Shown here: piece after piece, positions 4,410 through 60,847 of the stretch | Layout: each line of letters opens with the position of its first letter | How positions within the stretch are numbered: the stretch's first letter is position 1 | Made by a program: the position numbers and the translations under genes | Virus record (IMG/VR): IMGVR_UViG_3300045988_159816 | DNA: 64,000 nucleotides | Origin: a virus | Strand: one strand, 5' to 3' | The notes under the pieces: generated by a model | Told to the model about the DNA's origin: nothing | The model's input: only the letters and a program-made list of their open reading frames with translations | The model's database searches: none

Positions 4410-4438
4410 ATTATAACATTTATAAGCAATAATTGCAA
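4410..4438 (-). promoter_or_regulatory. sigma-70-like promoter for the minus-strand early gene
   Basis: On the - strand, TTGCAA (fwd 4433-4438) and TATAAT (fwd 4410-4415) with 17-bp spacing. Confidence 0.45.
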
Positions 4439-5719: not shown

Positions 5720-6012
5720 AAAGATGATACCCCCCTGCGTCCGTTTTAAGAATTGTTGCTACCACCCACCCCATCTATAATACATATCCATTATAGAGTC
5801 AATTTTACAAGTCAAAAATACAAACCCCCATTGAGTCTTTTTTCTTAATCAAAAATATCCCCCCTTATAGAGTCATTTATTCCAATCAAATAATCTATGA
5901 TTAATTCCCCACAAGGTCAGCAATCCCCCAATATAATCACAAGCAATCCCCCATTAAGTCCTCATAAATCAAATTCGATAATCAAAAATATCCTGCCCCA
6001 TTGAGTCAACTA
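5720..6012. repeat. iteron-like direct-repeat array (about 8 copies, consensus AATCAAAAATAT..CCCCCATTGAGTC)
   Basis: Repeat copies include cccccattgagtc at 5825-5837, ccccccttatagagtc at 5858-5874, ccattatagagtc at 5788-5800, cccccattaagtc at 5948-5960 and ctgccccattgagtc at 5994-6008. The preceding aatcaaaaata half-motif is also repeated. Confidence 0.6.
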
Positions 6013-6064
6013 ATCCAATCAAATAAAGAACGACTAAAAATATTCTTTTCGTATAAATAAAATG

Positions 6065-6093
6065 TTGACAATAGCAAACTAAAGTATTATAAT
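6065..6093 (+). promoter_or_regulatory. sigma-70-like promoter of the long rightward operon
   Basis: TTGACA at 6065-6070 and TATAAT at 6088-6093, immediately downstream of the iteron array. Confidence 0.55.
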
Positions 6094-6187
6094 AACTATA
6101 GTCAAAGTTTTAAATGCAAGTATGAAAAATGCCTTGTACACATTTAAAACTTTACTAATATAAAAGTAATAAGGGGGCGTATAAAAA

Positions 6188-11210: not shown

Positions 11211-11297
11211 CATTCTTTAAGATTTGTTCTAAAATTAAATAAAGATATGAATGGGTATATCTTGGATATACCCATTTTTATTGATAGGAGGAAAATC

Positions 11298-11858
11298 ATG
11301 ATTAAACCATTAATATCTATTAAAGATATTCGTTCCGAAGAAGAAGAAGGCTTTTGCATGGATATCGCTCTTGGTGCTGGTTATGCTGAAGCATTTAAAC
11401 ATTGGTTTCCAGAAAGGGCTGAAAGGGTAAAATCTTTAGGTGCTTCCGGATATCAACTTGCACAAAGACCAAAAATGGCAAACAGAATAATGGAGCTTGT
11501 TAAAGCAAGAGAAGATCAAAACACTAAAGCATTAGAATGGACAAGAACTAAATCCATTGAAAAACTTCACTATGTTATTAATTGTTGTCAAGCTGAAATA
11601 AATAGGGTTAATAAAGCTTTTGAAGATGAATTGCAGTTTTTAGAAGAACAAATCAACGAAACTTCTGACCCCGCTGAAATTCGTAGACTTGTTAATAAAA
11701 TGATTAAACTTCGTCAAAAAAGTCATCTTAATAAAATTCAGATTAGTGGCATAACAGATGCTATTGCCGAATTAAATACCATGCACGGATTCAATGAAAG
11801 TAATGTCAATATTAATAGCGCTGTTTCTTTTGTTGGGGAAGAAGACTTGGAGGACTAA
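11298..11858 (+). CDS. terminase small subunit (putative)
   Basis: Sits immediately upstream of the large terminase, with RBS gataggagg before the ATG at 11298. Helical N-terminus. Confidence 0.55.
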   Translation: MIKPLISIKDIRSEEEEGFCMDIALGAGYAEAFKHWFPERAERVKSLGASGYQLAQRPKMANRIMELVKAREDQNTKALEWTRTKSIEKLHYVINCCQAEINRVNKAFEDELQFLEEQINETSDPAEIRRLVNKMIKLRQKSHLNKIQISGITDAIAELNTMHGFNESNVNINSAVSFVGEEDLED

Positions 11859-26270: not shown

Positions 26271-26668
26271 TACCGTCAAATCGTAACCTTATTGTTACTC
26301 AAATTGGACAAAATGAAGTTACAAGAACTTATAAAGTTGATTCTTATAATAAAAGAATTATTGGAACAACTGATGGACAGCCTGCAATTGAACAAGCAAT
26401 TTTAAAAAATTTTGATACAGAAAGATTTGCTTATGTTATTTATTCTAAAAATTATGGTATTGAATTAGAAAAATACATTGGTAAAGATTATGATTTTATT
26501 CGTTCAGATTTGCAAAGGGCAATAGAGGAATGTTTATTAGTTGATGCAAGAATTTATTCTATTAATAATTTACAATTTACTCAAGAAGGTCTGGATTATA
26601 TGTCAATTACAATGGATATAGAAACAGAACAAGGTGTTTTGACTACAACTTTAGAGGTGAAAAAATGA
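26267..26668 (+). CDS. baseplate protein (DUF2634 / XkdS-like)
   Basis: Assigned from position and size. Confidence 0.4.
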   Translation: MIPSNRNLIVTQIGQNEVTRTYKVDSYNKRIIGTTDGQPAIEQAILKNFDTERFAYVIYSKNYGIELEKYIGKDYDFIRSDLQRAIEECLLVDARIYSINNLQFTQEGLDYMSITMDIETEQGVLTTTLEVKK

Positions 26669-27837
26669 ATGCACTTTCAACCTATTTAGAAAAATATTCA
26701 TATGATTATATTTTATCTGAAGCACTAAAACAAGTTCCGGACACTGTGGATAAACGTGAAGGTGCTATTATTCGAGATGCTTTGGCTCCTTGTTGTTATG
26801 AGGCAGCGAAGGCTATTTTGTATCTTGCAGATATTATCGAACAAACTTATGTAGCAACTGCAAATGGACTTTGGCTGGATGGTCGTGTTTTAGAGGGTGG
26901 AATTACTCGAGATCCTGCTACATATTCTAAAAATTTAGGTGTTTTTAAAGATCAATTAGGTAATCCTGTTCAAATTTCTATCGGACAAACTTTCTCGACT
27001 GTAGGAGATACCATTTTAAATTATGTTTGTGTACAGGTTTATGTGGATGAAAATGGGGATGTAGTTCCCGGAAGTTATGTATTACAATGTAATACTATAG
27101 GGTCTGTTGGTAATAGTTATATAGGTAGAATCGTTCCTAATGATTATATTGAAAAACTTGCTAGCGCTGAAATAACAAGTTTATTATATCCCGGCGAAGA
27201 AGAAGAAACAGATGAATCTTTACGTGAACGATATTTAGGTAATATGTTAAAAACAGCTTTTGGTGGTAATGTTGCACAGTATAGACAATGGGCAAAAGAA
27301 ATTGCAGGTATTGGTGGAGTTCAGGTTTATCCTGTTTGGGCAGGTGGTGGAACAGTTAAATTGAGTATTATTGATACGGATTATAATCCGGCTTCTACAG
27401 AATTTTGTCAAACTATTTTAGAAATGTTTGATCCAGAAAATTCCGGAGTAGAAAATACTCGTGGATTAGGTTTAGGTATCGCTCCAATAGATCATAAAAT
27501 GACAATATCAACTCCTTTACCAAGAACTATCAATGTATCTGGAAAAATCACATTATTACCCGGATATAAATTAGAAACACTATTACCTAAAATTAAAGAA
27601 TCTATTTCTAATTATCTATTAATGTTAAGACAACATTGGGAAGATAGTGACGAACAAAATAATTATTCAGTTATTGTATATTTGGGCAGAATTACAGTTG
27701 CTATTTTAAGTGTTGAAGGTGTATCAAGTGCTTATGAATTAAAACTTAATGATACTGATACTGATGTTGTTTTAACAGAAACAAGTTCTTTACAGGAAGT
27801 TCCTGTTTTAGGGTCGGTGAATTTCATTGAACAATAA
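26665..27837 (+). CDS. baseplate J-like protein (XkdT-like)
   Basis: 390 aa, assigned from position. Confidence 0.55.
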   Translation: MNALSTYLEKYSYDYILSEALKQVPDTVDKREGAIIRDALAPCCYEAAKAILYLADIIEQTYVATANGLWLDGRVLEGGITRDPATYSKNLGVFKDQLGNPVQISIGQTFSTVGDTILNYVCVQVYVDENGDVVPGSYVLQCNTIGSVGNSYIGRIVPNDYIEKLASAEITSLLYPGEEEETDESLRERYLGNMLKTAFGGNVAQYRQWAKEIAGIGGVQVYPVWAGGGTVKLSIIDTDYNPASTEFCQTILEMFDPENSGVENTRGLGLGIAPIDHKMTISTPLPRTINVSGKITLLPGYKLETLLPKIKESISNYLLMLRQHWEDSDEQNNYSVIVYLGRITVAILSVEGVSSAYELKLNDTDTDVVLTETSSLQEVPVLGSVNFIEQ

Positions 27838-28756
27838 AATTTATAATCGAACTGGGTTATATAGGACAAGAATTGGTCGTTATTTTCCAAAATATTATGA
27901 AGGTATTTTGGAAACAGATGAACTAATTAAAGTTGAAAATGATATTTGGAATAACATTTATAATTTGATTGTAAAAGCTAAAAGAAATCAATTTATTGCT
28001 TATGCAGATGAAGATGGAATTTATGCTTATGAACAATTATTCCAAATAGTTTCAGATCCCACTACTGAAACATTAGAAGAAAGAAGATTTAGACTACTTA
28101 ATAGAGTACAAACATTGTCTTATTATACAATGAATTTTCTTCGCGAAAAATTAGATAATTTATTTGGCGTGGATAATTATGAAATCCAAATGGATTATCC
28201 AAATAGAACATTATATGTCAAGAGTAATTTTTCAAATTATTTTGTTTACAATGAAACGATTGCATTAATTCACAAAATAAGACCAGCCAATATGGTTTTT
28301 GTTAATGTACCTTTAATTCCGTCAACAGTTGAAGTTGGAGAAGAAATCTATCAACAAAAATGGTGGTGGAATTATATTTTAGGTGGTAAATGGAAAGTCG
28401 GTGAAAAACCGATTATTAGTGTACAGGAATTGGCTAAATTAAAATCAGAGGAGGTACAATCCTTGACGCCTTTAATGCTTAATAAATTAAAAGAATTTAC
28501 AGCAGAAACAATTCAAGCTGTGCTAATCAATGATACCTATAAGGTAACAACATTCGTTCAAAAAATTATTACTGGTGGGTATTTAAGAATCCAGTATAAT
28601 ATTGAAAATTGGGAACAAATAAAATTAATTACTAATATTAAATTTTTAGACGCTGAAGGATTTATTTTATCAAATAATGCTGTGTATATTCCAGTGGCTT
28701 CAGATACAATGATTGAACACAGAATTAATATTCGGGAGGTTACTTCAAATGGCTAA
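27827..28756 (+). CDS. tail protein (XkdU-like position)
   Basis: Assigned from position. Confidence 0.45.
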   Translation: MNNKIYNRTGLYRTRIGRYFPKYYEGILETDELIKVENDIWNNIYNLIVKAKRNQFIAYADEDGIYAYEQLFQIVSDPTTETLEERRFRLLNRVQTLSYYTMNFLREKLDNLFGVDNYEIQMDYPNRTLYVKSNFSNYFVYNETIALIHKIRPANMVFVNVPLIPSTVEVGEEIYQQKWWWNYILGGKWKVGEKPIISVQELAKLKSEEVQSLTPLMLNKLKEFTAETIQAVLINDTYKVTTFVQKIITGGYLRIQYNIENWEQIKLITNIKFLDAEGFILSNNAVYIPVASDTMIEHRINIREVTSNG

Positions 28757-29657
28757 TATTATAATGCAAATTACTGATTACATTGCTCATTTATGGCATA
28801 ACACATCTGATGATATTGTAATGGCTGAAAATATTAATGGTTGGGAAGATACATTACAACAACATTCACAATTCTTAAAAAGATTTTCTTGGCAACCGAA
28901 TACTACTTATCTAAAAAATTCAGTATTACTTTATCCATTCGGATTACATACTAAATTAGTATCTAAAAACGCTGGTACAAGTGGCAGCGTTGAGCCTACA
29001 TGGTCAGAGGCTACAGGGGTAGAAGGTTCAAGAACAATTCAGGATAATGATATTGTTTGGGAAGAACAACCTATTCAAATATCTTCAGATACTACACCAG
29101 TGGGAACCATTAAACAGCAGCTCTGGAACTCAGCACCTCCTGGATATTTAAAACTTGATAAAAGTGTAATTCTAAATAGATCCGAATATCCGGAATTGTG
29201 GGATTTTGTTCAAAAATATATGCCTTTAACTACAGAGGTTGAATGGCAAAAGATGTTGACTCAAAATGGGACTTCCGTTGGTTTCTTTTCACAAGGCGAC
29301 GGCTCTACTACTTTTAGAACACCAATTATGATAGATTTTGGTCGTGGTGGCTCCTCTGCTGGTGCTTTCTTTAAAGACCAAAATAAACTCCATAACCATA
29401 CGGCTAATATTGATACTACCCCCGCACAGGGTAGCTTCAGGTTGTGGAAATTTGATCCTGCCGCTACTGGTGTATTCTCATCAAGTTATTTAGGAAGATG
29501 GGCAAACAGTAAAAACGGCGGTGATGATGCAATGTATCAAATTAATTTTAATCTTGCAAATGCTTTAAATAACATTACAATCGCTTCTTCGGGAGGATCT
29601 GAAGGGTATCCGAAACACGTTACAATGCCATTTTACTTGAGAACTTTAAATATTTAA
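28752..29657 (+). CDS. tail fibre protein with collar-like domain and invertible C-terminus
   Basis: Tail-collar-like motif WDFVQKY...GDGSTTFRTP. The ATG at 28752 follows RBS gggaggt. A 34-bp inverted repeat lies inside its 3' third. Confidence 0.6.
   Translation, partial: ANIIMQITDYIAHLWHNTSDDIVMAENINGWEDTLQQHSQFLKRFSWQPNTTYLKNSVLLYPFGLHTKLVSKNAGTSGSVEPTWSEATGVEGSRTIQDNDIVWEEQPIQISSDTTPVGTIKQQLWNSAPPGYLKLDKSVILNRSEYPELWDFVQKYMPLTTEVEWQKMLTQNGTSVGFFSQGDGSTTFRTPIMIDFGRGGSSAGAFFKDQNKLHNHTANIDTTPAQGSFRLWKFDPAATGVFSSSYLGRWANSKNGGDDAMYQINFNLANALNNITIASSGGSEGYPKHVTMPFYLRTLNI
29365..29398. repeat. left 34-bp inverted repeat of the invertible segment
   Basis: ctttctttaaagaccaaaataaactccataacca, perfectly reverse-complementary to 29908-29941. 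Confidence 0.8.
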
Positions 29658-29907
29658 TGTTCTTAAATAGTAAGGCATAATGATATGTTTAGGATAGGCT
29701 TCTGATCCACCACTATCACTCATGTTTAAATCGTGGGAGTGTGTACCATTAAAGTTGACAACTTCACGAGCATCACCTTTATGAGCACAACTACCAGCCC
29801 ATTGACCAGTTCTGGAAAATACTCCTGTTGTTCGACCTGAATCTTGTCCAACTTGTTGAGCTGCAATAAAACTACCTGTTAAACTTTTAGATTGGATGCT
29901 TCCAGAG
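29646..29907 (-). other. silent alternative tail-fibre C-terminal cassette (minus strand, promoterless)
   Basis: The minus-strand reading gives PFFKDQNKLHNH|SGSIQSKSLTG...YPKHIIMPYYLRTLNI*, parallel to the active C-terminus ...FFKDQNKLHNH|TANIDTT...YPKHVTMPFYLRTLNI*. The two stop codons overlap tail-to-tail. Confidence 0.65.
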
Positions 29908-29941
29908 TGGTTATGGAGTTTATTTTGGTCTTTAAAGAAAG
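29908..29941. repeat. right 34-bp inverted repeat of the invertible segment
   Basis: tggttatggagtttattttggtctttaaagaaag. It overlaps the RBS region of the next gene. Confidence 0.8.
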
Positions 29942-29950
29942 GAGTATAAA

Positions 29951-31135
29951 GTGATTAAATTTAGAATATTCAATCAACGATTAAGTTATTATGGAGATTC
30001 TGAAGTAGTTGCAGATAGTAAAGGATATTTAACATTTACACTTGAAACCTCTGAAGATTGGGCTAATTATGTAGGTAAGACTGTACAATTTACAAGGGAC
30101 GGAAAAACTTACAGTGTAACCAATATTTCAGACGGCGTAGAGTATGTTGTTCCTTGGGAAGTCCTTGTTGGTGCAGGAGTAATGCAAGTAAATGCGTTCG
30201 CTGTATCAATGGTGGGAAGTAAAAGAGCAACTACAAATGAAATCCAAATAGAGGTTATAGACAGTGGATTTAATCCGGACGATCTAGAACCAACAGATCC
30301 AACTCCTGATATTTTTGAACAGTATGTTCAACAAGTTCAGGAAAATGCAGATAAAGCAGAACAAGCGGCTAAAGATGCAAAAGATTCTGCGGATACTGCG
30401 CAAGAATTAAAAAACAAAATTGATACTATTTATCAAAATGTTAAAGATATTAAGAGTGACATAGAAGATTTATTAGAACAAGTACAGAATTACGCTAATA
30501 ATGCCTATCAATATGCAGAAGCCGCTAAATTATCTGCACAACAAGCTTCAAAATCTGAAACAGAAGCAGGTCGATATGCAGGCGAAGCAAAGGTATTTTC
30601 TCAAAATGCTAAAGAATCAGAAAATAATGCTAAAATCAGCGCAGATTCTGCTAAAGAATCAGAAAATAATGCTAAAATCAGCGCAGATTCTGCTAAAGGT
30701 AATGCAGAATTAGTCTTAGCGACTAAAGAAGAGATAGATACTATTTATGCAAATATCGAAATAATTAAAGCGGATATTGATAATAAGTATACACAAATTA
30801 ATTCACAAGCAGATTCAATAAATTCGATGTATACTCAAATACAAGAATGGTATAATTCTTTTTTACAATCAGCTTCTTATATAAATTTTACAGATGAAGT
30901 TTCTGAAGATTTATGGAATGCAGACGAAAATGATTATACTCTATCTCTTGATACATCAGGAAGGGCTATTTTAAATATTCAAATGTTGGATACGAATGGA
31001 TTATACACAAGAAGTCCTTTTGTAGATATGGAATTTCCTGATGACGTTAGTGTAACAATCAGGGCTATTGCTCCTTTTACTGGTAGACTATGCTTATACG
31101 AATTAATGAAAGGAAGCGAAACTAATGCTCAATAA
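29951..31135 (+). CDS. tail fibre protein (coiled-coil, repeat-containing)
   Basis: GTG start after aaaggagt. Ala/Lys/Glu-rich coiled coil with an internal 14-aa tandem repeat. Confidence 0.5.
   Translation: MIKFRIFNQRLSYYGDSEVVADSKGYLTFTLETSEDWANYVGKTVQFTRDGKTYSVTNISDGVEYVVPWEVLVGAGVMQVNAFAVSMVGSKRATTNEIQIEVIDSGFNPDDLEPTDPTPDIFEQYVQQVQENADKAEQAAKDAKDSADTAQELKNKIDTIYQNVKDIKSDIEDLLEQVQNYANNAYQYAEAAKLSAQQASKSETEAGRYAGEAKVFSQNAKESENNAKISADSAKESENNAKISADSAKGNAELVLATKEEIDTIYANIEIIKADIDNKYTQINSQADSINSMYTQIQEWYNSFLQSASYINFTDEVSEDLWNADENDYTLSLDTSGRAILNIQMLDTNGLYTRSPFVDMEFPDDVSVTIRAIAPFTGRLCLYELMKGSETNAQ
30608..30691 (+). repeat. perfect 42-bp tandem duplication inside the tail fibre gene
   Basis: gctaaagaatcagaaaataatgctaaaatcagcgcagattct occurs twice, encoding AKESENNAKISADS twice. 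Confidence 0.85.
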
Positions 31136-31679
31136 AATTAGTCAAGTTATTTCTGGATTATCCCTAATCAAATTTATTAATTCTGTTATAGATGGCATAA
31201 ACGCTCATTTATCTGATTATAATAATCCTCATAAAGTAACAGCGGCTCAATTAGGTTTATCTAATGCGTATAAATATAAGGGTAGTGTTGAAACTTATGA
31301 GGATTTACCAACATCAGCTGAAAGTGGTGATGTTTATAATGTTGTTAAAGGTGATAAAGAACAAGGTATTGCAGATGGAGCAAATTTTGCTTGGGACGGT
31401 ACTAAATGGGATAATTTAGGCGGGTTATTAACTGGTACAGGTGCAATTAGGGTTGAATTTGTGGCTGCAAGTTGGCAAATTAATTCTTCCACTAATTTAT
31501 ATGAACTTCCATTAAATCTTTTTGAACAAGTGGAAAGTGTTGGTGTTTTAAGTGTTGAGGCTGTTGAAAATAATGAAAGACATAGCGTTTTAATCGACAC
31601 TATTGGGAATAAAGTAGTTGCTTTAAATGCTTTTGATGGTGCTATTTATTATACAACTTTTCGGGAGGTAACACAATGA
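31125..31679 (+). CDS. tail fibre N-terminal/adaptor protein
   Basis: Fibre-like motifs NPHKVTAAQLGL and ANFAWDGTKWDNLGG. Confidence 0.45.
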   Translation: MLNKISQVISGLSLIKFINSVIDGINAHLSDYNNPHKVTAAQLGLSNAYKYKGSVETYEDLPTSAESGDVYNVVKGDKEQGIADGANFAWDGTKWDNLGGLLTGTGAIRVEFVAASWQINSSTNLYELPLNLFEQVESVGVLSVEAVENNERHSVLIDTIGNKVVALNAFDGAIYYTTFREVTQ

Positions 31680-33511
31680 AAAAAATTTCTCGCCAGCAAG
31701 ATGTAACAGTAGCTAATGTTTTAAGATGTTTAAATGAATTAAATGATGAAAATATGGTTTATGTCGGAACAGAACCTCCGGAAGAAGTTAAAAAAGGATT
31801 AATATGGGTAAATCCAGAAGAAATAACAGAAGAACCTGAAAAAATTTATGTTGGTCATATGGTTGGGGATATCTATCCTGTTAGTTATACCGAATTAGAA
31901 TCGGGTCAATTAGTATTAAAAGGTCAGTTAGTTAGTCGTGAAATTTATGGTGTATTATGGGCATGGTTGCAAAAACACCCTAGTTTACTAATAACAGAAC
32001 AAGAATATACCGAATATTTAAATTCCTCAGAAAATTTATGTTGTCCTTATTTTAGCACAGGAACAACAGAAAATAATTTCAGATTACCTAATTATAATGG
32101 CGTATTCTTTAAAGCAACTAATGATACTTCTAAAATTAACGAATTTGAAACTGATAAACAGAGAAATATAACTGGTAGCTATGTTCAACTAGCTACCAGT
32201 TGGGATGATGGTGGAAGAGGTGTAATATCATTTTCAATGTCAGGAGCTTATTCTTCTACAGATGGTGGTACAACTAATGACAGTATACATCAGGATCCCA
32301 GTGATAGGACAGGTATAACAATAGATTTCGACGCCTCTCGTTCCGTCGGAACTGAGCACACTGGCAGCGAAGTTAAACCTAAAAGTCTTAATCAGGTATG
32401 GGTAGTTCAAGCTTTCGGAGTAATCACTAATGCAAGTTCCCTTGATATCTCTGTTTTAGAACAACAAATACAACAAATTACAGATTATAGCAATTATGAA
32501 GTTTCGTGTATTAAGAATAATCCAGTTTATTACAATAGAGATCAATTATTTTATTCTAATAAAACAAATATCACAATTCCAAAAAATCTAAAAATAAACA
32601 TTGATGGAGAATGTTATATAAGTACCATTAATAAAGTTCTTCAATTATCCACTGTAGACACTCCTCAAAATTTAGCCGGGAAAGATGTTTACATTTATGC
32701 TTGTAAACCTCAAGATATTTCTTCTACAGAGCCAATTTTCATTTTGTCTTTAAATAGTACAGTGCCCACAGGTTATACTGCAAGTTCTAGCCGTAAAATA
32801 GGTGGATTTCATTGTTTATGTGCAGATGTTGGTACAATAGATGGACATACTTTATCCGGATATGTTACTGGAGATATTTTACCCGCATCAATTTGGGATT
32901 TACTACACAGACCTAAAGGAGATTCAGAAGGACTTGCTTATGATGAAGTTTCTGAATGTTGGTTAAGTATTTATCAATTAAGTTGGGACGGCACTAAATT
33001 AGTCAGTGTTTATAATGGAGTTATTGCAGATGGTACTTCAACTAAAAAATGGCATGGTGAAGCTTTTATTGAACAATTAATGAATCAAAAAATGCGATTA
33101 CCTTGGCGACATGAATTTCAGATGGCGGCAAAAGGAAGTAATGAAGGAACATCAATTAAGAATGCAGCAGATCCTAATACTACAGGTGGTCATGTAGATA
33201 GTAACAATAGAAGAATGATTAGTAATATTGGATTAGAAGATTGTTGTGGCTGTTCTTGGCAATGGGCTATGGATTTAGGCTTTGCAGGGGGATCAGGATG
33301 GAATGATTCTGTTTATAATTCCAATGTTGATTCTCAAAGATATGGTCAGTCTTATGGTACTTTATATCGTTTGCTCCTGGGCGCTTGCTGGTATAGCGGT
33401 TCGTATTGCGGTTCTCGTTCTGTCGCTTGTCATTCTGGCTCGTCTAGTGTCATTTCCGCTTACTCTGCGCGCGGTGCGTCGGAGCCGAGGGTTGTCACGA
33501 ATTTAAACTAA
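31676..33511 (+). CDS. DGR target: tail fibre/receptor-binding protein with C-terminal variable region
   Basis: N-terminal collar-like segment paralogous to the 28752 and 35487 proteins. The 3' end carries the VR. The C-terminus ...GACWYSGSYCGSRSVACHSGSSS is of the type usually found in DGR variable regions. Confidence 0.8.
   Translation: MKKISRQQDVTVANVLRCLNELNDENMVYVGTEPPEEVKKGLIWVNPEEITEEPEKIYVGHMVGDIYPVSYTELESGQLVLKGQLVSREIYGVLWAWLQKHPSLLITEQEYTEYLNSSENLCCPYFSTGTTENNFRLPNYNGVFFKATNDTSKINEFETDKQRNITGSYVQLATSWDDGGRGVISFSMSGAYSSTDGGTTNDSIHQDPSDRTGITIDFDASRSVGTEHTGSEVKPKSLNQVWVVQAFGVITNASSLDISVLEQQIQQITDYSNYEVSCIKNNPVYYNRDQLFYSNKTNITIPKNLKINIDGECYISTINKVLQLSTVDTPQNLAGKDVYIYACKPQDISSTEPIFILSLNSTVPTGYTASSSRKIGGFHCLCADVGTIDGHTLSGYVTGDILPASIWDLLHRPKGDSEGLAYDEVSECWLSIYQLSWDGTKLVSVYNGVIADGTSTKKWHGEAFIEQLMNQKMRLPWRHEFQMAAKGSNEGTSIKNAADPNTTGGHVDSNNRRMISNIGLEDCCGCSWQWAMDLGFAGGSGWNDSVYNSNVDSQRYGQSYGTLYRLLLGACWYSGSYCGSRSVACHSGSSSVISAYSARGASEPRVVTNLN
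33369..33483 (+). repeat. DGR variable repeat (VR)
   Basis: 115 bp aligned to the TR with 20 mismatches, every one at a TR adenine. Confidence 0.85.
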
Positions 33512-33544
33512 TGACCGAGGGAACTATTTTACGAGGAAAACGGT

Positions 33545-33566
33545 GGCTAGTATGAAATACTAGCCA
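33545..33566 (+). terminator. hairpin downstream of the target gene (possible terminator, followed by TATAAT at 33584-33589)
   Basis: ggctagtat-gaaa-atactagcc perfect 9-bp stem. Confidence 0.4.
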
Positions 33567-33634
33567 AAGCTAACTTTTTAGTGTATAATATTAATTAGGT
33601 TAATGTATTTTTCAGTAGCTGGCGGTTTTTTCGG

Positions 33635-33749
33635 GTTTGCTCATGGGCGCTAACTGGAATAACAGTTCGAATTGCAGTTCTCGTTCTGTCAATTGTAATA
33701 ATGGCTCGTCTAATGTCAATTCCAATTACTCTGCACGCAGTACGTCGGA
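33635..33749 (+). repeat. DGR template repeat (TR), non-coding
   Basis: gtttgctcatgggcgctaactggaataacag...gtacgtcgga. It is rich in AAC/AAT codons in the VR frame, and no ORF covers it. Confidence 0.85.
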
Positions 33750-33859
33750 TACGGGGAAAATTAGCAGGTGCGGCTAACCCTCGGCTGATACATTGACCTT
33801 GCTGAAAAGCAAAATACGAAAAAGGGTGAAGCAGTGGTTAGTAGTTAATTCGAACGTCA

Positions 33860-34906
33860 TTGCTTCAATTTTTAATAATGAAAAGACATAATAATTTATT
33901 TGACAAAATTGTAGACAAGGATAATCTTTTGTTAGCGTATAAAAAAGCTAAAAAACATAAAAGCTGGCAACAAAAAGTTATTCGTGTTGAAAAAGATTTG
34001 GATAATTTAATTGAAGAATTAAGATTAAGTCTAATTAATGGTACTTACAAAACAGCTGAATACAGAACAAAGAAAATTTATGAACCAAAAGAAAGAACAA
34101 TTTATGTACTTCCATTTTATCCAGATCGCATTGTTCATCACGCTATAATGAATATTTTAGAACCTATATGGGATAACCTTTTTATTTCTGATAGTTATGC
34201 TTGTAGAAATGGTAAAGGTCAACATAAAGGAAGTCAAAAATGTATGGAATTTGTTCGCAAAAATAAGTATTGTTTAAAATGTGATATTAGTAAATTTTAT
34301 CCATCTATAAATCATGAAATATTAAAATTAATTATTCGTAAGAAAATAAAATGTAAACGCACTTTAAATTTATTAGATACCATTATTGATAGTATTGATG
34401 GAGAAACAAATATTCCTATTGGTAATTATCTTAGTCAATGGTTTGGAAATTTATATTTAAACGAATTAGATATGTTTATGAAACATGATAATAAAATTAA
34501 ATGTTATATTCGTTATTGTGATGATTTTCTTTTATTTTCTAATGATAAAGCTTTATTAAAAGAAATGGCTATTAAAATCAAAGATTATGTTGAAAATATT
34601 TTAAAATTAAGATTAAGTAAATGTAATTTATTCCCGACTTCTCAGGGAATAGATTTTTTAGGTTATAGGCATTTTTCGTCTGGATATATTCTTGTTCGTA
34701 AAACTACAGCTAAAAGAATGAAGAAAAGAATCCGGAGATTAAAATGGGAATTGGCTAAAAAGAAAATTACTAATGATAGAGCTTTATCTGTTATTGGAAG
34801 TATTTCGGGCTGGTTAAAATGGGCTAATACATATAACCTTCAAATATCCTTACAACTAAATGAATTAAAAGAATCTATAGGAGGTTCTGTTAATGAACAA
34901 ATTTAG
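33860..34906 (+). CDS. DGR reverse transcriptase
   Basis: Motifs DISKFYPSINHE (motif A), IPIGNYLSQWFGNLYLNELD (motif B) and YCDDFLLF (YxDD). The 348-aa size is typical of DGR RTs. Confidence 0.9.
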   Translation: MLQFLIMKRHNNLFDKIVDKDNLLLAYKKAKKHKSWQQKVIRVEKDLDNLIEELRLSLINGTYKTAEYRTKKIYEPKERTIYVLPFYPDRIVHHAIMNILEPIWDNLFISDSYACRNGKGQHKGSQKCMEFVRKNKYCLKCDISKFYPSINHEILKLIIRKKIKCKRTLNLLDTIIDSIDGETNIPIGNYLSQWFGNLYLNELDMFMKHDNKIKCYIRYCDDFLLFSNDKALLKEMAIKIKDYVENILKLRLSKCNLFPTSQGIDFLGYRHFSSGYILVRKTTAKRMKKRIRRLKWELAKKKITNDRALSVIGSISGWLKWANTYNLQISLQLNELKESIGGSVNEQI

Positions 34907-35486: not shown

Positions 35487-37091
35487 ATGGCAGATGTAAA
35501 AATTTATGACGGCGAAAAATTTGTAAACTTTAACATATCAAATGGTATTGAATTACCTGTAGGATTTGAATACTATGTACCTTATTCAGAATTAGATAGT
35601 GGTCAATTAATTCGTGATGGACAAATTGTAAGTCGTAGTGTTTATAAAGATTTATGGGATTTTGTTCAAAAGCATCCGTCTTTATTATTGACCGAGGAAC
35701 AATGGCAAGCTGAATTATCTGCTAATGAAGGAATAGTAAATAATTATTATTCTTCGGGTGATGGTTCAACTACTTTTAGATTACCTAAAGCTGGAGTTAT
35801 TGAATTACCTGTTATCACAGCTGAAGGACTTAATAAATTTAGTACGGATAGTTTTAAATCTCATAATCACGAAAATATAACAGAGCCTATTAGTGGAAAA
35901 ATATTAAATCCTATATATTGGAATACTACTGATAATGGTGCAATATTAAATAACGCAAATATTAAATCTCAAAACTCTGGCTCTCTTACTCCTTATTTTG
36001 CGCCACTATCAGGAACTAATATAACTAATGTTGGAGGAACAGAAACTAAACCTAAAACAATAACTAAATTAGCTGTAGTTCAAGCCTTTGGTAGAGTTAT
36101 AAATACAGGTACTTTAGATATTAATGATTTGGTAAACGATGTAAATAACTTAATTCAATCTAATCATATTAAAACCTATACAGATTTAACTCAAATTGGC
36201 TTAACTAATGGAATTGAGCAATTCCAGGATATTGGTAAAAACTTGCCTGAAAATTCTCAAATAACTTATCGAGTTTGGGAGAAAGATAATCATAATCACG
36301 TCCTTTATCCTAGTATAAGTGGAATATTCACAATGGAAAAAGCAATAACATTTTGCAGATGTTTTTATAATAGTATAACACCTAATAAACAATGGCAAAT
36401 GGCTTTTGATTATCGTGATGAATTTTACATTGAACCAACTTGGGAATTATTAGCAAAAAATAATAAATTGAGTATGCCTTCTAATAACAAGATAATTATT
36501 AATTTAAAAAATCAGGGAGATTCCTGGACAGCTCCCTGTGATGGTTATATATGGGGAATGAAAATTGGGGGTAGTGATGTTGTAAACAGTTGGTTAAATG
36601 TTTGGGACTCTACTGATGCAGATACAAGTAATTATGGCACTTTGATTTATTGTGATTATGGTCAACCATATATTAATTTATGCGGTAATTTAGCTGTACG
36701 AAAAGGGCAAACTGTTTATTTTAACTGGAATAATAATTGTAGAGTATATTTTTATCCAGCTTTAAATAATAATATGCCTGTTTATGGTGAGGATGTAAGA
36801 ATTTACATCAAAGCTATTAATATAAATGGTTATCCAGTTAAGGGAGCTAATGTTGAGATAACAATATCTTCTGGCCATACAGAAAATGGAAAAACTAATA
36901 ATGATGGTAGATATTTACTATCCTACGCTGGTTATAAGAAGATAAAAAATGCAAATATAAGTTCAGGCGATATGCCTAAAGTGATGGATGTTAAAGTATC
37001 AAGCAACGAAGGAAGTGACGTACTCACACTTTATAATTTAGAAGAATTACAAGAAAATAAAATTTATGATTTAGAAATACACATTGTATAA
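35487..37091 (+). CDS. tail fibre protein (third collar-domain paralog)
   Basis: The N-terminal YVPYSELDSGQLIRDGQIVSRSVYKDLWDFVQKHPSLLLTEE...GDGSTTFRLP parallels the DGR target N-terminus. It has no VR. Confidence 0.6.
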   Translation: MADVKIYDGEKFVNFNISNGIELPVGFEYYVPYSELDSGQLIRDGQIVSRSVYKDLWDFVQKHPSLLLTEEQWQAELSANEGIVNNYYSSGDGSTTFRLPKAGVIELPVITAEGLNKFSTDSFKSHNHENITEPISGKILNPIYWNTTDNGAILNNANIKSQNSGSLTPYFAPLSGTNITNVGGTETKPKTITKLAVVQAFGRVINTGTLDINDLVNDVNNLIQSNHIKTYTDLTQIGLTNGIEQFQDIGKNLPENSQITYRVWEKDNHNHVLYPSISGIFTMEKAITFCRCFYNSITPNKQWQMAFDYRDEFYIEPTWELLAKNNKLSMPSNNKIIINLKNQGDSWTAPCDGYIWGMKIGGSDVVNSWLNVWDSTDADTSNYGTLIYCDYGQPYINLCGNLAVRKGQTVYFNWNNNCRVYFYPALNNNMPVYGEDVRIYIKAININGYPVKGANVEITISSGHTENGKTNNDGRYLLSYAGYKKIKNANISSGDMPKVMDVKVSSNEGSDVLTLYNLEELQENKIYDLEIHIV

Positions 37092-37103
37092 TTATAATAA
37101 AGC

Positions 37104-38908: not shown

Positions 38909-39278
38909 AGTAAATTATGAAAAATTAAAAGCTGAAATTCAAAATCTGACTCATAGAATGGATCAGATGGAGAAAAGAGCATCCATGTATGAAGAACAAT
39001 TCCGTGAAACCTCGAAAACTGTGCAATCAATAGATTTTAATGTCAATAATTTATTAAAATTATTCGACAAACTTGAATCAAGAATGTCTAACGATCAGGA
39101 GATATTACATAAAAGAATAGGTTCTTTAAAACAGGATTTTGAAGATTATCAAATGAAAGATTTAAAGAATTACTATAACTATAAAAGAGTTATAGTAAAC
39201 ACTGTTCTAACTCTAATTATCGGAGGACTTTTTGGTGGAGTTGTTACAGCCTGGAGAGTCTTCAAGATTAATGGTTGA
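38898..39278 (+). CDS. coiled-coil protein with C-terminal TM helix
   Basis: TM segment TVLTLIIGGLFGGVVTAW at the C-terminus. Confidence 0.4.
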   Translation: MENRVNYEKLKAEIQNLTHRMDQMEKRASMYEEQFRETSKTVQSIDFNVNNLLKLFDKLESRMSNDQEILHKRIGSLKQDFEDYQMKDLKNYYNYKRVIVNTVLTLIIGGLFGGVVTAWRVFKING

Positions 39279-39561
39279 ATCAGATTTTAATAAAAAACTC
39301 AAAACATTGTCACAAATTGCACTAAAGGTGATCATAAAAGGAACTGGCTTAAAAACGAAAAGTGAATTGCTTTTATGGAAATTTTACATAGAAGATAAAA
39401 CTTATTCCGAAATAGCCGATGACTTAGGAATTGAAATATCTTCAGTTGGCAAAGCCTTATGGAATGCCAAAAAGGAATTAAAAGAAATCATTAATAATGA
39501 AAGGCATTTAATTCCACAGGAAATCCAACCATATATTGAGCTCTTGTTGCAAAAACAATAG
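39232..39561 (+). CDS. sigma-70 region-4-like HTH regulator (possible late-gene regulator)
   Basis: HTH motif KTYSEIADDLGIEISSVGKALWNAKKELKEI. Confidence 0.45.
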   Translation: MVELLQPGESSRLMVESDFNKKLKTLSQIALKVIIKGTGLKTKSELLLWKFYIEDKTYSEIADDLGIEISSVGKALWNAKKELKEIINNERHLIPQEIQPYIELLLQKQ

Positions 39562-49894: not shown

Positions 49895-50533
49895 ATGGCT
49901 CGCGTAAAACTTGAAGATGTCGATAAAGTAGTAACATCATCAACACAGTTTTTTCAAATGAAAAACGATGGGGATATCGAAAAAGTTAATATATTATATG
50001 AAACAATTGATGATGTTGAATGTCATTCCCTTCATAAAGTTAAAGTTAATGGACGCGATCGTTGGGTTGAATGCTTGCGGGAAGTTGGGGATGAAGTAGA
50101 GGCTTGTCCTTTATGTGCTTCCGGAAGTAAAATAGCATTAAGAGTATTTGTTCCATTGTATGTTAATGGTCAGGTTCAATTTTGGGAACGTGGTAAGAGT
50201 TTTGTTGATGATTTGAAAAGTTATTGTAATCGTTATAAACCTTTATGCGGTATGAATTTTGAAATTGAACGTCAGGGTGAAAAAGGCAATACTCAAACAA
50301 AATATCAATTCTTTCCATTAGAAAAGAATGGCAAAACTTTGAAGGACTTTCCGGAGGTTCCGGAAGTTCCAGACCAGTTCTTGCTTACTAAAACGGCTGA
50401 TGAACTGTATGACTTTTTAGATACGGGTATTATGCCAGGAGTTGAAGCAACACAAGAAAAGAAACAGGAAGTTCAGCCAAGACGTCGAGAGGGTAGTCCA
50501 CGAACAAACCGCCGTCGTGAAGTTCAATTTTAA
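49895..50533 (+). CDS. putative zinc-binding ssDNA-binding-like protein
   Basis: His/Cys cluster H...H...C...CPLC with a basic C-terminus. The assignment is weak. Confidence 0.35.
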   Translation: MARVKLEDVDKVVTSSTQFFQMKNDGDIEKVNILYETIDDVECHSLHKVKVNGRDRWVECLREVGDEVEACPLCASGSKIALRVFVPLYVNGQVQFWERGKSFVDDLKSYCNRYKPLCGMNFEIERQGEKGNTQTKYQFFPLEKNGKTLKDFPEVPEVPDQFLLTKTADELYDFLDTGIMPGVEATQEKKQEVQPRRREGSPRTNRRREVQF

Positions 50534-54516: not shown

Positions 54517-54520
54517 TAAT

Positions 54521-56270: not shown

Positions 56271-57346
56271 AGATTGATATTATAACTACCGAATTAAAGG
56301 ATATGGTTGCTCGAGCAATTAAAGGTGCAAGCTGTAATAAAATTCTTCCTTTAACGAATTATATGGGCTTTGAGGTTGTTGATAATACCCTGTATTTAAA
56401 AACTACTGACGGCTTGCATTATTTGACAGTATGTAAAGATAAAGTAAAATGTGAAGACTTTGCCTGTGTACTACCTGTGCAAACTTTTGCTAAATTAGTA
56501 AATAAAACCACCAGTGAACACATTATTTTAACTGTTAAAGACGGTGTACTTACCGTTAAAGGTAATGGTTATTACCACATTGAGCTTGTACTGGACGAAA
56601 ATGGGGATATATTGCAATTTCCGGATACGTCTATAGAAATACCTGAAGATATTAAGGCGGTAAAGGTTAAACAGCCAATTCTTCAGGCGGTTTTCGATAT
56701 TTGTACAGCAAGTTTATCTAAAACAATGGAAAATGCAGTTTTAACAGGTTATTTCTTTGATAAGAATGTAATTACTACAGACAGTATTAAACTTTGCGTT
56801 TATTCAGTCAATGTATTTAAAAGACCTGCACTGTTATCTGTAGAGATGCTTAAACTTGCAACTTTAATTCCGGAAGAAGATATATCTGTTTATTTTGTTG
56901 ATAACGATGTAATCTTTAAAACCGAAACAATGGAAATTGCAGGTGCACAATTAGAAGATATTGAAACATATCCAGTTGAAGAACTTGAATCCTTTTTAGA
57001 AACAGAATTTCCTTCAAATTGTGTAGTAAATAAGGGGCTTGTACTTTCTGCCCTTGACCGTTTAAATATCTTTGTATCTGAATATGATAAAAACACTATT
57101 AAATTAGTATTTACTAAAGATGGTATGAAAATTATTTCTAGACGTACTAAAGCCGAAGAAACTATTCCTTATATGGAGAGTGAAAGCTTTGAAGAGTTTG
57201 AATGTTTGGTAGACATTCAACAATTTAAAGACCAGTTAAACGCTTTAGCAACCGATTCTATCGACTTGTCTTATGGTTCTCCTCAAGCTATTAAGATTGT
57301 CGAAGGTAAGGTAGTACAAATTCTTTCTTTGGTTGATGAAGAATAA
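56267..57346 (+). CDS. DNA polymerase sliding clamp (beta-clamp-like)
   Basis: 359 aa with a DnaN-like N-terminal pattern. The neighbourhood includes clamp-loader genes. Confidence 0.55.
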   Translation: MKIDIITTELKDMVARAIKGASCNKILPLTNYMGFEVVDNTLYLKTTDGLHYLTVCKDKVKCEDFACVLPVQTFAKLVNKTTSEHIILTVKDGVLTVKGNGYYHIELVLDENGDILQFPDTSIEIPEDIKAVKVKQPILQAVFDICTASLSKTMENAVLTGYFFDKNVITTDSIKLCVYSVNVFKRPALLSVEMLKLATLIPEEDISVYFVDNDVIFKTETMEIAGAQLEDIETYPVEELESFLETEFPSNCVVNKGLVLSALDRLNIFVSEYDKNTIKLVFTKDGMKIISRRTKAEETIPYMESESFEEFECLVDIQQFKDQLNALATDSIDLSYGSPQAIKIVEGKVVQILSLVDEE

Positions 57347-58137
57347 TGGCTAAATCATCTTTAAAAAATTTACTTGCCATAGTAAATGAAACAAAGAAGC
57401 AAAGCCCTATTGCAGAATCCTTTTTGATGGACTTAATACAGTCCATCGAAAGGACTGCAAATAAGAATGAGAAAAAACCTAGTCCTCATTATAAGCCCAG
57501 TAGTTTGAATTGTATTCGTAATATGTATTATCAAATTGTAGGTCAAGATATGGACGAAAGTATTAAAGAGGCTGTGCTTGTTGGTATTGGGGAAAGTGGT
57601 ACGGATCGTCACGAACGTATCCAAAAAGCAATTATGCAAATGAAATCAAACGGTTTTGATTGCGAATATTTAGATGTTGGGGAATATGTAGAAGAAAATG
57701 AAATTCCAGGATTGATTGTAAAAGGTAAAAGTGGAGTAGAAACACGACTTTTCAATGAACCATGGAATTTAAGTTTTCTTTGTGATGGTATTATTAAATA
57801 TAAAGGTCAATATTATATATTTGAATTTAAAACTGAAGTATCTAAGAAATTTTTAATGCGTAAAGATGTTGATGAAGACCATAAAAAACAGGCAACAGCC
57901 TATGCTTTATCTTTAGGAATTGATAAAGTTTTATTTGTTTATGAATGTCGAGATAACTGTGATAAAAAATCTTATATGTTAGATGTAACAGATGACATGA
58001 AAAAGAATTTAATACAGTTAATTCAGGATTGCGATGATTATGTAGATGCTAATGTAGTCCCGCCTAAACCAAAAGATATTAAAACTAAAACTTGTCAATA
58101 TTGTAAATATCGCCTAGCGTGCAGAAAGGACGTATAA
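57346..58137 (+). CDS. PD-(D/E)xK nuclease, Cas4/RecB-like exonuclease
   Basis: Motif YIFEFKTE and C-terminal Cys cluster CQYCKYRLAC. Confidence 0.5.
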   Translation: MAKSSLKNLLAIVNETKKQSPIAESFLMDLIQSIERTANKNEKKPSPHYKPSSLNCIRNMYYQIVGQDMDESIKEAVLVGIGESGTDRHERIQKAIMQMKSNGFDCEYLDVGEYVEENEIPGLIVKGKSGVETRLFNEPWNLSFLCDGIIKYKGQYYIFEFKTEVSKKFLMRKDVDEDHKKQATAYALSLGIDKVLFVYECRDNCDKKSYMLDVTDDMKKNLIQLIQDCDDYVDANVVPPKPKDIKTKTCQYCKYRLACRKDV

Positions 58138-58138: not shown

Positions 58139-58624
58139 ATGCCTGTATCCCTCGGAAAAAAGTTTGAAGAACACTTTTCAACCCAACTTGAAGACGCTGC
58201 AATATGTTTTGATCGTTTTAAAGATGATACCGCAGGGTATAAAGGTATTCGTAATATATGCGACTTTTCTGTCTTTTTTAATGGGTATTTATTTTACATC
58301 GAATGTAAAAGTATACATGGCAAAACCTTTAATTATGCTAATTTAACTGATAATCAATACACTGGATTATTAGATAAATGTGAATATGATAAAGTTATTG
58401 CAGGAGTTTTAATATGGTTTATAGACTGTGATGTTACGGTATTTGTTCCTATTTCTGTTATTAAACAGCATAAGGAATTATTAAACTATAAATCGTTTAA
58501 AAGCTATGAAATTCCGGATATGTGTACTATTTTTGAAGGTAAAAAATTAAGAAAATTCTTTAAATATGATATAGATAAAAATTTATCTACGATCATAAGA
58601 AAGGCTAATCAATATGGAAGTTGA
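58139..58624 (+). CDS. RecU-like Holliday junction resolvase (putative)
   Basis: Motif DFSVFFNGYLFYIECKS (D...E.K). Confidence 0.45.
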   Translation: MPVSLGKKFEEHFSTQLEDAAICFDRFKDDTAGYKGIRNICDFSVFFNGYLFYIECKSIHGKTFNYANLTDNQYTGLLDKCEYDKVIAGVLIWFIDCDVTVFVPISVIKQHKELLNYKSFKSYEIPDMCTIFEGKKLRKFFKYDIDKNLSTIIRKANQYGS

Positions 58625-59136: not shown

Positions 59137-59709
59137 ATGTATACAGCTGAAATATTTACTAGATATATCAATCAAATTAAAAGTCCGGAAGTAAAGAATA
59201 TTGTTAAAAGAGGATTAGCAGAATGTCCTGAAGAATTTTATACAATGGCAGCGTCAACTACAGGTAAGTATCATCCTAAATTCGCTCTTGGTGAAGGTGG
59301 ACTCATTCGTCATACGTTAGCGGCTTGTTGTTGGGCAGTAGATATGCTGGAAATGGAACAGTATGAAGAATTGAGAGCCTATAAAGACTTAATTTTAGCA
59401 GCTTTAATTCTTCATGACAGCGTTAAAAAGGGTACAGGCAAAAGTAAATATACCTTATTTGAACATCCAATATTTGCGGCTGAAATGGTAGAAAGAATTA
59501 GTAAAGAACTGTATAATGAAACATTCAATGAAGTGTATAAAGAAAAAGGTCATTATATAGCTTGTTTAATTGCTAGTCATATGGGGCAATGGAATGTTAA
59601 TCTTTATAGTAAAACAATATTACCAAAACCTAAAACTGCAACTCAAAAATTTGTTCATTTATGTGACTATTTAGCTAGTCGAAAAGGTGATGTTGATGTC
59701 CAATATTGA
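59137..59709 (+). CDS. HD-domain phosphohydrolase
   Basis: HD-domain motifs H...ILHDSVK...H. Confidence 0.55.
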   Translation: MYTAEIFTRYINQIKSPEVKNIVKRGLAECPEEFYTMAASTTGKYHPKFALGEGGLIRHTLAACCWAVDMLEMEQYEELRAYKDLILAALILHDSVKKGTGKSKYTLFEHPIFAAEMVERISKELYNETFNEVYKEKGHYIACLIASHMGQWNVNLYSKTILPKPKTATQKFVHLCDYLASRKGDVDVQY

Positions 59710-60847
59710 TGCTGTATTAAAAGAAATCAATAAAAAATTTAAAGCTGAACTTGTATTTCAAGGTAGGGCTGAATATGATGTTAAAGAAACAGAAAAGATT
59801 CAGTTTACAAGTTGCAGATTAAATTATATGCTCTATGGGGGCTTACCTCGTGGAAAACTGATTGAGTTTTCGGGAGAAGAAAATTCAGGCAAAACAACTA
59901 CAGCTTTAGATGCTGTAGGAAATGCACAACAACAATTCATCAAAGAGTATAAAGAACAACTTGCAGAATTGGAAGAAATTCCAAAAAGAAATAAAGCAGA
60001 AGAAGAGGCTTATCGTAAATTAAAAGCAAGAGGAGCTTTAAAGGCTTTATTTGTAGATTGTGAAAATACTTTAGATGAAGAGTGGGCAGAAAAGCTTGGT
60101 GTTGATGTAGATTCCTTGTATGTTGTAAAACCTACCAATCAAACGGCAGAACAAATCTTTGATATCATTGAAAGTCTTGTTGAAACAGAAGAATTTGGAA
60201 TCGTTGTCATTGATAGTTTTGCAGTTATGTTATCTCAAGATGAATATGACGAATCTGCTGAAAAAAGAACATATGGCGGTATATCCAAACCTCTAACGAA
60301 ATTTACTAAAAAAATGATACAGTTGTGTAGTAGGTTAAATGTTACCTTAATTGGTATAAACCAGCTCAGGGACAAAATAAATAGTCCATATGGGGGGAAA
60401 GATACTCCCGGCGGCAGGGCTTGGAAACATAATGCAGTATTACGTTTATTTTTTAGCAAAGGAACATATTTTGATGAAAATTTAAAAGATTTAACTCGTA
60501 ATACGGAAGAACCAGCTGGTAATTATGTCATGATTAATATAGCTAAAACTAAAGTTTGTAAACCTGATAGACGTGTTGGTTGCTATACATTAAATTATAC
60601 ATTCGGTATTGATTGGATAAATGATTTAGTTGAAATGGGACTTAAATTAGGTTATATTGATCAGGCTGGTGCATGGTTTAGATTTATTGATGAAGATGGC
60701 GTTATTATGTGTGATGAAAATGGTGATGATATTAAATTACAAGGTAAAGCCTCTGTAACTGCCTTTTTAGAAGATGAAGCAAATGCAGATATTTTGCAAG
60801 ATTTTGACCAATTAATTAATAGTAAAATTTCAAGTAACGTTCGGTAA
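59687..60847 (+). CDS. RecA-family recombinase
   Basis: Walker A FSGEENSGKTT and RecA-like core VVIDSFAVM. Confidence 0.7.
   Translation: MMLMSNIDAVLKEINKKFKAELVFQGRAEYDVKETEKIQFTSCRLNYMLYGGLPRGKLIEFSGEENSGKTTTALDAVGNAQQQFIKEYKEQLAELEEIPKRNKAEEEAYRKLKARGALKALFVDCENTLDEEWAEKLGVDVDSLYVVKPTNQTAEQIFDIIESLVETEEFGIVVIDSFAVMLSQDEYDESAEKRTYGGISKPLTKFTKKMIQLCSRLNVTLIGINQLRDKINSPYGGKDTPGGRAWKHNAVLRLFFSKGTYFDENLKDLTRNTEEPAGNYVMINIAKTKVCKPDRRVGCYTLNYTFGIDWINDLVEMGLKLGYIDQAGAWFRFIDEDGVIMCDENGDDIKLQGKASVTAFLEDEANADILQDFDQLINSKISSNVR

Follow-up and report, generated by a model that had tools for sequence, protein, structure and literature searches.

Inversion of the tail-fibre tip has so far been a textbook trait of a handful of temperate phages and plasmids from enterobacteria, each with an invertase of its own. 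The G segment of phage Mu (Gin), the C segment of P1 and P7 (Cin), the P segment of e14 (Pin) and the Min system of p15B are all characterized by a constant fibre part and alternative tips that lie in opposite orientations. The repeats bounding the Mu G segment measure 34 bp and those of the P1 C segment roughly 0.6 kb. The same logic is now encountered in an uncultured phage of the human gut, represented by the IMG/VR virus record IMGVR_UViG_3300045988_159816: in this stretch of 64,000 nucleotides, the whole of which was analysed and is referred to as the window, a tail-fibre gene ends in a 577-bp inverted-repeat module that has no enzyme of its own. A sequence-only reading of the window had assigned the module to the Mu G-segment/P1 C-segment type and had presented 34-bp repeats as common to both. 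The assignment stands as a functional analogy and the gene order is Mu-like too (Baseplate_J, Gp48-like, fibre), but an invertase, a tyrosine recombinase, a gix/cix-like site and chaperones are absent; the repeat length agrees with that of Mu and not with that of P1. In contrast to the Mu G type, there is here neither a serine invertase gene nor a gix/cix-like 26-bp dyad-symmetric site, the segment spans 509 bp instead of about 3–4 kb and includes no U/U' genes, and the join falls at an H-x-H motif that is conserved within a collar-like domain, not between large gene segments. Furthermore, the present phage is without an integrase and probably not temperate, and its repeat arms appear to evolve in concert.

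Gene-altering programmed inversions have been surveyed in bacterial genomes and prophages, including the fibres of Mu-like prophages (Milman et al., Nucleic Acids Research 2023, PMC9881135). Those loci share with the present one inverted repeats in two opposed coding sequences, one full-length and the other partial, the occurrence of both orientations among close strains, and a specificity-determining surface protein as target. They are enriched for adjacent recombinase genes (PMC9881135), whereas the present locus belongs to a free phage genome and no recombinase adjoins it. The survey covered bacterial genomes only and named viruses as future work, and putative invertons in gut viral genomes were still presented as a first report in 2026 (PMC13501310), which indicates that well-supported examples are scarce. 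Shufflons and invertons driven by tyrosine recombinases (R64 Rci, PsrA/Tsr-type), with asymmetric short repeats and in many cases more than one segment, form a further class, from which the locus differs in having a single segment and no PF00589 gene. Chloroplast and herpesvirus genomes undergo flip-flop by way of long inverted repeats. In the cyanophage A-1(L)/N-1 group, a segment of approximately 30 kb isomerizes through inverted repeats independently of a recombinase (bioRxiv 10.64898/2026.02.14.705889). The present locus resembles such long-repeat isomerization in that orientations ignore phylogeny, no dedicated recombinase is found, and the repeats match within a genome and differ between lineages. 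However, the repeats of the long-repeat systems extend over 400–700 bp or more and gene blocks are flipped with the coding sequence unchanged, whereas here the arms span 34–36 bp and it is one gene that is re-spliced by the flip. No literature example was found of a recombinase-free flip-flop in which arms of around 35 bp re-splice a gene. Diversity-generating retroelements (DGRs) of the Bordetella BPP-1 Mtd type are likewise dedicated to variation of a phage receptor-binding tip, but operate by mutagenic retrohoming instead of DNA inversion; the fibre described here has no variable repeat/template repeat (VR/TR) pair.

The tail-fibre or receptor-binding gene (28749..29657, plus strand), recognized by its open reading frame (ORF), translation and family matches, encodes the expressed isoform A of 302 aa. 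It opens with an ATG at 28749 and closes with a stop codon at 29655–29657; the earlier reading had the stop right and the start, at 28752, one codon late. Its constant N-terminal part, residues 1–205 (28749..29364, plus strand), lies outside the invertible segment; in every relative it stays collinear with the genes upstream, irrespective of the cassette fused to it. The left arm of the inverted repeat (29365..29398, plus strand), CTTTCTTTAAAGACCAAAATAAACTCCATAACCA, follows; it codes for (A)FFKDQNKLHNH in the expressed gene and occupies the same position in two clades of relatives. Next comes cassette A (29399..29657, plus strand), the variable C-terminal 85 residues plus stop, which is expressed in the window and is defined by its translation and by orthologues in relatives. 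The right arm (29908..29941, minus strand) is the exact reverse complement of the left, in agreement with the first description, and 509 nt separate the two. Cassette B (29646..29907, minus strand), identified by minus-strand translation, comprises the alternative C-terminal 86 residues plus stop and is silent. Its frame is open from the right arm to the stop, reading FFKDQNKLHNH-SGSIQSKSLTGSF...YPKHIIMPYYLRTLNI-stop, so that the alternative C-terminus proposed on the minus strand is present and exact retranslation reveals no frame disruption. The silent cassette has neither a start codon nor a promoter of its own, and a stop lies six codons upstream of FFKDQ (I-stop-SLYTP-FFKDQ).

The two cassettes meet tail-to-tail in a perfect 12-bp palindrome, TTAAATATTTAA (29646..29657), which forms the centre of the segment and reads L-N-I-stop for both; the tail-to-tail overlap of the stop codons had been noted correctly, and the same end overlap is found in clade 2. 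Some measurements needed correction: the stretch 29660–29907 amounts to 248 bp and not 280, the cassettes share 11 N-terminal residues instead of 12, and the last 16 residues, described as common to both, are identical at 13 positions. Apart from the two overlapping cassettes nothing is contained in the 509-bp segment, and no alternative tail-fibre assembly or chaperone genes (U/U') were found within it. When 29399–29907 is reverse-complemented in silico, an intact, in-frame fibre of 302 aa results in which residues 1–216 are the same and the last 86 are swapped, as had been anticipated. The arms are the longest exact inverted repeat of the window, the runner-up being 19 nt, and 20 Markov-simulated 64-kb sequences produced longest inverted repeats of 15–20 nt. 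Homology between the arms ends sharply at both edges of each. A third copy does not exist in the window at up to three mismatches, and 100 shuffles gave no matches. Thus the window holds one segment and one repeat pair only, which together make up the repeat-bounded module of 577 bp. Across loci the arms are 34, 35 or 36 bp long.

The arm sequence and the fibre protein, used as queries against virus and metagenome collections, retrieved approximately 30 related loci, and all the related contigs are human-gut assemblies. They fall into clade 1, about 94–100% identical to the window over the constant region, and clade 2, in which the constant part is around 82% identical. Orientations were called by mapping the constant part and both cassettes in each locus. 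In clade 1, cassette A is expressed in the window, L009, L024, L025 and L031, and cassette B in L017, L020 and L029; in clade 2, A' is expressed in L010, L011, L021, L023, L028 and L035, and B' in L013–L016, L032 and L034. Near-identical phages from different people hold opposite orientations. L004/L017 and L005/L020 align with the window in one direction over both flanks and in the other over the repeat-bounded 577 bp, which denotes a simple inversion with breakpoints within the arms. The predicted exchange of the distal ~85 fibre residues is therefore found in nature. The constant regions of L010 (A) and L032 (B) are 100% identical, that of L023 (A) is identical to those of five B-state loci, and L029 (B) and L009 (A) are 99.3% identical. 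L023 and L013 differ by one mismatch over 1,446 bp of flank, and their segments are 99.5% identical after flipping.

Orientation is thus independent of phylogeny, and the distribution of states requires at least four independent flips over 19 loci. Judged from these comparisons, the segment flips quickly when set against the pace of point mutation, a pattern typical of programmed inversion. With its repeats in opposed coding segments and both orientations on record, the locus is a gene-altering programmed inversion, or inverton, in the broad sense. The segment is almost certainly a real, recurrently inverting fibre-tip switch, and the natural sequences attest to repeated flipping in human guts. 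The silent cassettes are intact in all 19 fully covered loci, and the same cassette peptides are expressed in some loci and silent in others. Ratios of nonsynonymous to synonymous substitution (dN/dS) are 0.05–0.3 in most cassette pairs, 0.10–0.15 between cassette A and its clade-2 orthologue, and 0.05 between the window copy of cassette B and the expressed copy of L017. Both cassettes are, by this measure, evidently under purifying selection. The intact silent cassettes, the shared peptides and the low dN/dS together indicate that both tips are in regular use. That the two clades have orthologous A and B cassettes in one and the same compact arrangement implies that the inverton arose once.

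Certain contigs break at the arms. Contig 115771 (L001/L003, IMGVR_UViG_3300045988_115771; 64,185 bp) starts and ends exactly at arms, and L030 (ULUW01050941.1) likewise terminates at one. Such breaks are suggestive of mixed orientations in the reads, or else of an artefact of k-mers shorter than the repeat. The idea that both orientations coexist in one metagenome was abandoned: the IMG/VR set 3300045988 pools assemblies of different samples. Contig 3300045988_136394 and NODE_75 of ERZ772854 (113,939 bp) agree in size and coordinates, which signifies that the set combines different ENA assemblies and that a shared identifier does not mean a shared sample. L033 and L037 seemed to carry a third type of cassette, but theirs are B' cassettes of clade 2, present on contigs that are short and in part chimeric. 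Shortened database proteins, a conceivable sign of assembly breaks at the repeat, were frameshift or adapter artefacts.

The fibre belongs to a wider family, in which most of the 376 database matches have a single C-terminal module and the next gene starts 11–20 nt past the stop. Fibres of the L019 type, of 327–328 aa, carry a single module and no inverton, and the distant fibres P0056, P0051 and P0012, considered as possible invertons with other arms, have a single cassette and no inverton. All the C-terminal modules open at a '...DQNK-H-H' motif and close in 'MP[FY][FY]LR-LN[IV]'. As the motif is retained also where there is no inverton, the arms sit on a protein motif conserved for structural reasons. 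An informative relative without the inverton is L043, which is 97.5–98.2% identical to the window on both sides over approximately 17 kb compared. It departs from the window across 29337–29941 at the inverton, and homology returns at the first base past the right arm. The inverton is hence an exchangeable module on a common backbone, and near-identical backbones with and without it fit a module that would be self-sufficient. The fibre itself matches PHROG tail-fibre and tail-protein families with E values down to 9e-14, and its family profile matches the collar-like repeats of the T5-like L-shaped tail fibre (PDB 8hqz, E 1.9e-15). Membership of the Pfam Tail Collar family is not claimed, the match being sub-threshold (E 0.069), and an AlphaFold2 model was set aside with a mean predicted local distance difference test score of 49.

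The fibre gene lies directly 3' of the Baseplate_J (26665–27837) and Mu Gp48-like (27827–28756) genes. On the other side of the switch, the outer edge of the right arm adjoins the ribosome-binding site (AGGAG, 29942–29946) of a coiled-coil, fibre-shaft-like gene with a GTG start (29951..31135, plus strand), which matches PHROG tail-fibre families. This gene is the distal fixed flank and is collinear with the constant fibre part in all relatives.

The window represents nearly the whole genome of the phage, with a GC content of approximately 31%, almost all genes on the plus strand and no tRNAs. Structural genes for a terminase, SPP1-type portal, capsid, sheath, tube, tape measure and baseplate are present, together with an endolysin and replication genes for a family-A DNA polymerase, DnaB, primase, clamp and clamp loader. 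The phage is therefore a contractile-tailed human-gut phage of about 64 kb and, as no integrase is encoded, probably virulent. Its best portal matches, at no more than 43% identity, are in Brevibacillus and Clostridium phages. The nearest cultured relatives infect Bacillota. A megablast search for close phage relatives in GenBank gave no match, and the fibre profile found no relative among 185,579 species genomes of bacteria and archaea. On the 115,199-bp contig OIYW01000024.1 (L024/L036) there are two copies of the inverton, at a spacing of 64,435 bp. Contig 115771, which equals the circle minus the segment, and the double locus of OIYW01000024.1 show that the genome is closed. L024/L036, L002/L008 (138881, 81,541 bp) and L013/L026 (113,939 bp) each exceed one genome length, the genome being circularly permuted and about 64.4 kb in size. 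Around 2.1 kb are absent from the window and were read from the relatives L006 and L007.

No invertase gene had been seen in the window, which is correct and extends to essentially the whole genome. Pfam analysis of plus-strand window ORFs of at least 75 aa and of the ORFs in the gap uncovered no resolvase, integrase, large serine recombinase or transposase, and neither PF00239 (serine invertase) nor PF00589 (tyrosine recombinase) gave a match. A Fis-dependent recombinational enhancer of the Mu G type would be located in an invertase gene, and the phage has no such gene. The 2.1-kb remainder, where a recombinase might have been sought, encodes only a DNA polymerase III delta-like protein and small proteins. 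PHROGs searches with ten unassigned ORFs detected no recombinase. When Hin, Gin, gamma-delta resolvase and XerD served as tblastn probes against the six frames of the window, only noise was returned, and every match of the Hin, Gin and gamma-delta resolvase probes had an E value above 1; the gap ORFs were covered by Pfam only. One minus-strand ORF of invertase size, 4107–4664 (185 aa), was rejected as a gene: it has no Pfam match and a low-complexity, AT-rich translation.

What, then, flips the segment? The fibre consists of the constant residues 1–205 followed by one of two tips of 85–86 residues, and inversion of the 509-bp segment joins the other tip in frame, so that one fibre type is made per genome and the other stays silent. 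The presumed outcome, given the position of the swap in the fibre tip, would be altered receptor or host use. As to the catalytic event, homology-dependent recombination between the arms, with no dedicated invertase, is the likeliest mechanism, at about even odds. The arms might pair by homology during replication through functions encoded by the phage. Candidates are a RecA-family recombinase as the putative catalyst (59687..60847, plus strand; Pfam RecA, E 4.5e-36) and, as putative accessories, a RecU-like Holliday-junction resolvase (58139..58624, plus strand; Pfam RecU, E 1e-6), a Cas4/PD-(D/E)XK-like exonuclease (57346..58137, plus strand; PHROG 1706, E 2e-43; PHROG 1990, 'Cas4-domain exonuclease') and a single-strand DNA-binding protein (49895..50533, plus strand; PHROG 14578, E 4e-46). 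Host RecA or template switching could substitute for these. The minimal efficient pairing segment of RecA is 31–34 bp (PMC3945230), and the arms, at 34–36 bp, lie at that minimum.

The evolution of the arms provides the main argument. The clades differ at three synonymous positions within the arm (14 C/T, 17 A/G and 23 A/G), and each difference is mirrored in both arms. Three differences over 4.33 synonymous sites correspond to a proportion of synonymous differences (pS) of 0.69, to be compared with 0.52 between clades in the constant region and 0.58–0.62 in cassette A. As the pS of the arm is no lower than that of its flanks, the arm DNA is not conserved in the way a recognition site would be. 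The C-terminal 21 codons common to A and B served as a control block and have a pS of 0.75–0.88 within one genome, which is saturated; since the arms are identical, only the arms are homogenized. In these alignments the arms are consequently seen to evolve in concert, identical within a genome and diverging between lineages. Mismatches confined to one arm occur in a few loci, namely L011 (position 23) and L015 (positions 11 and 25). A reciprocal cut-and-rejoin reaction at a fixed point cannot carry over to the second arm a change that has arisen in the first, whereas heteroduplex repair in homologous recombination can; such repair, or gene conversion, would keep the arms identical. By inspection, hix/gix- or lox-like dyad symmetry is missing from the arms, the only dyad within an arm being the 10-bp palindrome TCTTTAAAGA. 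Inspection for a 26-bp crossover site, in which two imperfect 12-bp inverted half-sites surround a 2-bp core, gave, against hix-like consensus sequences, a best register with 9 of 12 positions matched in one half-site and no match in the other. The homogenization and variable length of the arms, the single-arm mismatches and the lack of a dyad site favour a homology-dependent mechanism.

Several considerations weigh against this interpretation. Arms of 34–36 bp are very short for efficient RecA-type recombination, and the known recombinase-free isomerizations of phages involve repeats of 400–700 bp (bioRxiv 10.64898/2026.02.14.705889). In bacteria, the recombinase that flips an inverton is in many cases encoded elsewhere (PMC9881135). 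The argument from concerted evolution stands on three substitutions over ~4.3 synonymous sites only, and arm positions 1–13, which include TCTTTAAAGA, are the same in almost every locus and might represent a short core for a recombinase. Around 30 ORFs of the phage have no Pfam or PHROG function; minus-strand ORFs other than 4107–4664 were checked by the tblastn probes alone, and the Pfam scan covered ORFs from 75 aa upwards. The fuller proposal is a self-sufficient, recombinase-free inverton in a probably virulent phage, where the phage's own RecA system, arms of minimal length and gene conversion would sustain reversible tip switching at a low rate; it is tentative, its chances lying a little below even.

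A host site-specific recombinase acting in trans would account for the same module. The enzyme might be a serine or tyrosine invertase, perhaps a global one such as Mpi of Bacteroides or RecV of Clostridioides, and it would recognize as its sites either the whole 34-bp arms or a core inside each. Host Pin is able to complement gin mutants of Mu, and no recombinase has been found in the present phage. The outer boundaries of the arms are sharp and perfectly conserved, positions 1–13 with their palindrome are near-invariant, and flips outpace point mutation in the manner of programmed inversion; invertons with no recombinase nearby are documented (PMC9881135). On the other hand, an enzyme that cuts and rejoins would not homogenize the arms, where three synonymous changes over 10 bp are mirrored, and the repeat DNA is conserved no further than its coding constraint demands. 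A full site with dyad symmetry is absent on inspection. Arm positions 1–22 yielded, in 185,579 bacterial species genomes, two single matches at chance level and no inverted pair. Moreover, a probably virulent phage tied to the enzyme of one host would lose its switch on changing hosts. A host enzyme is the main alternative, possible but less likely than homology-driven inversion.

It is quite improbable that a phage protein of an unrecognized recombinase family flips the segment. The ORFs without function, such as 3082–3594, 11247–11858, 49028–49891 and 58614–59135, offer room for one, but no such ORF adjoins the inverton, and the comparison with L043 reveals no gene that co-varies with the module over the ~17-kb backbone of 97.5–98.2% identity. 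Concerted evolution of the arms, in addition, weighs against any sequence-specific enzyme. Least credible, and very improbable, is an evolutionary by-product, in which a tail-to-tail duplication would suffer inversions as rare accidents with no switch being maintained: the lack of a recombinase and the possible k-mer origin of the contig breaks at the repeat (both ends of 115771, and L030) are compatible with it, but the 19 loci require four or more independent flips, in some cases between genomes whose flanks are identical, the fully covered silent cassettes are all intact and apparently under purifying selection, the arms are kept identical while the remaining cassette sequence has diverged to saturation, and the very compact layout is conserved in two clades.

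Should flipping indeed be driven by homology between the arms, phase variation of a coding sequence would need no dedicated recombinase, and about 35 bp of identity would suffice as a recombination switch in phage replication. In that case searches built on adjacency to a recombinase would miss such switches.

A second repeat is found in the neighbouring shaft-like gene, where a perfect 42-bp tandem duplication at 30607–30690 encodes SAKESENNAKISAD twice. Two copies are present in most clade-1 relatives and one in L027 and L031. This change in copy number fits a homology-dependent mechanism.

A complete DGR is located at 31676–34906, 2 kb downstream of the inverton, and acts on a different fibre gene. 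It comprises an Mtd-like target (31676–33511; Pfam mtd_2nd, E 2.6e-22), a reverse transcriptase (33860–34906), a VR at about 33372–33484 and, approximately 266 nt downstream, a TR at 33638–33750. Of the 21 VR/TR mismatches in the core, 20 are at adenines of the TR. With the DGR and the inverton, the phage possesses two different systems that diversify fibres. A third fibre-like gene (35487–37091; 534 aa, PHROG tail-fibre matches) lies in a block, 35851–37101, that is replaced or strongly diverged in relatives of otherwise 98% identity; homology to L002, L003, L004 and L043 breaks at 35850 and is restored at about 37101. The block appears to be another exchangeable receptor-binding module. The combination of an inverton, a DGR and a third exchangeable fibre gene offers a compact model for layered host-range diversification in gut phages.

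Elsewhere in the genome, the interval 4011–6187 is an AT-rich stretch of about 2.2 kb (GC approximately 28%) with no plus-strand ORF of 75 aa or more, the rejected minus-strand 4107–4664 being the sole long one; a role in regulation or as an origin is conceivable. An Rfam scan of the window gave no matches. The ORF at 39232–39561 has a weak match to Sigma70_r4_2 (E 4e-4), and an ORF of 114 aa in the gap region (L007, 906–1250) looks like a helix-turn-helix protein by eye only and has no family match; the two products may be transcription factors of the phage. Finally, a queuosine/7-deazaguanine cluster extends over 52916–56270 and includes an unassigned 307-aa ORF (52916–53839), QueC, a PTPS/QueD-like protein, a radical-SAM QueE-like protein and GTP cyclohydrolase I, a gene content which suggests that the phage modifies its DNA.

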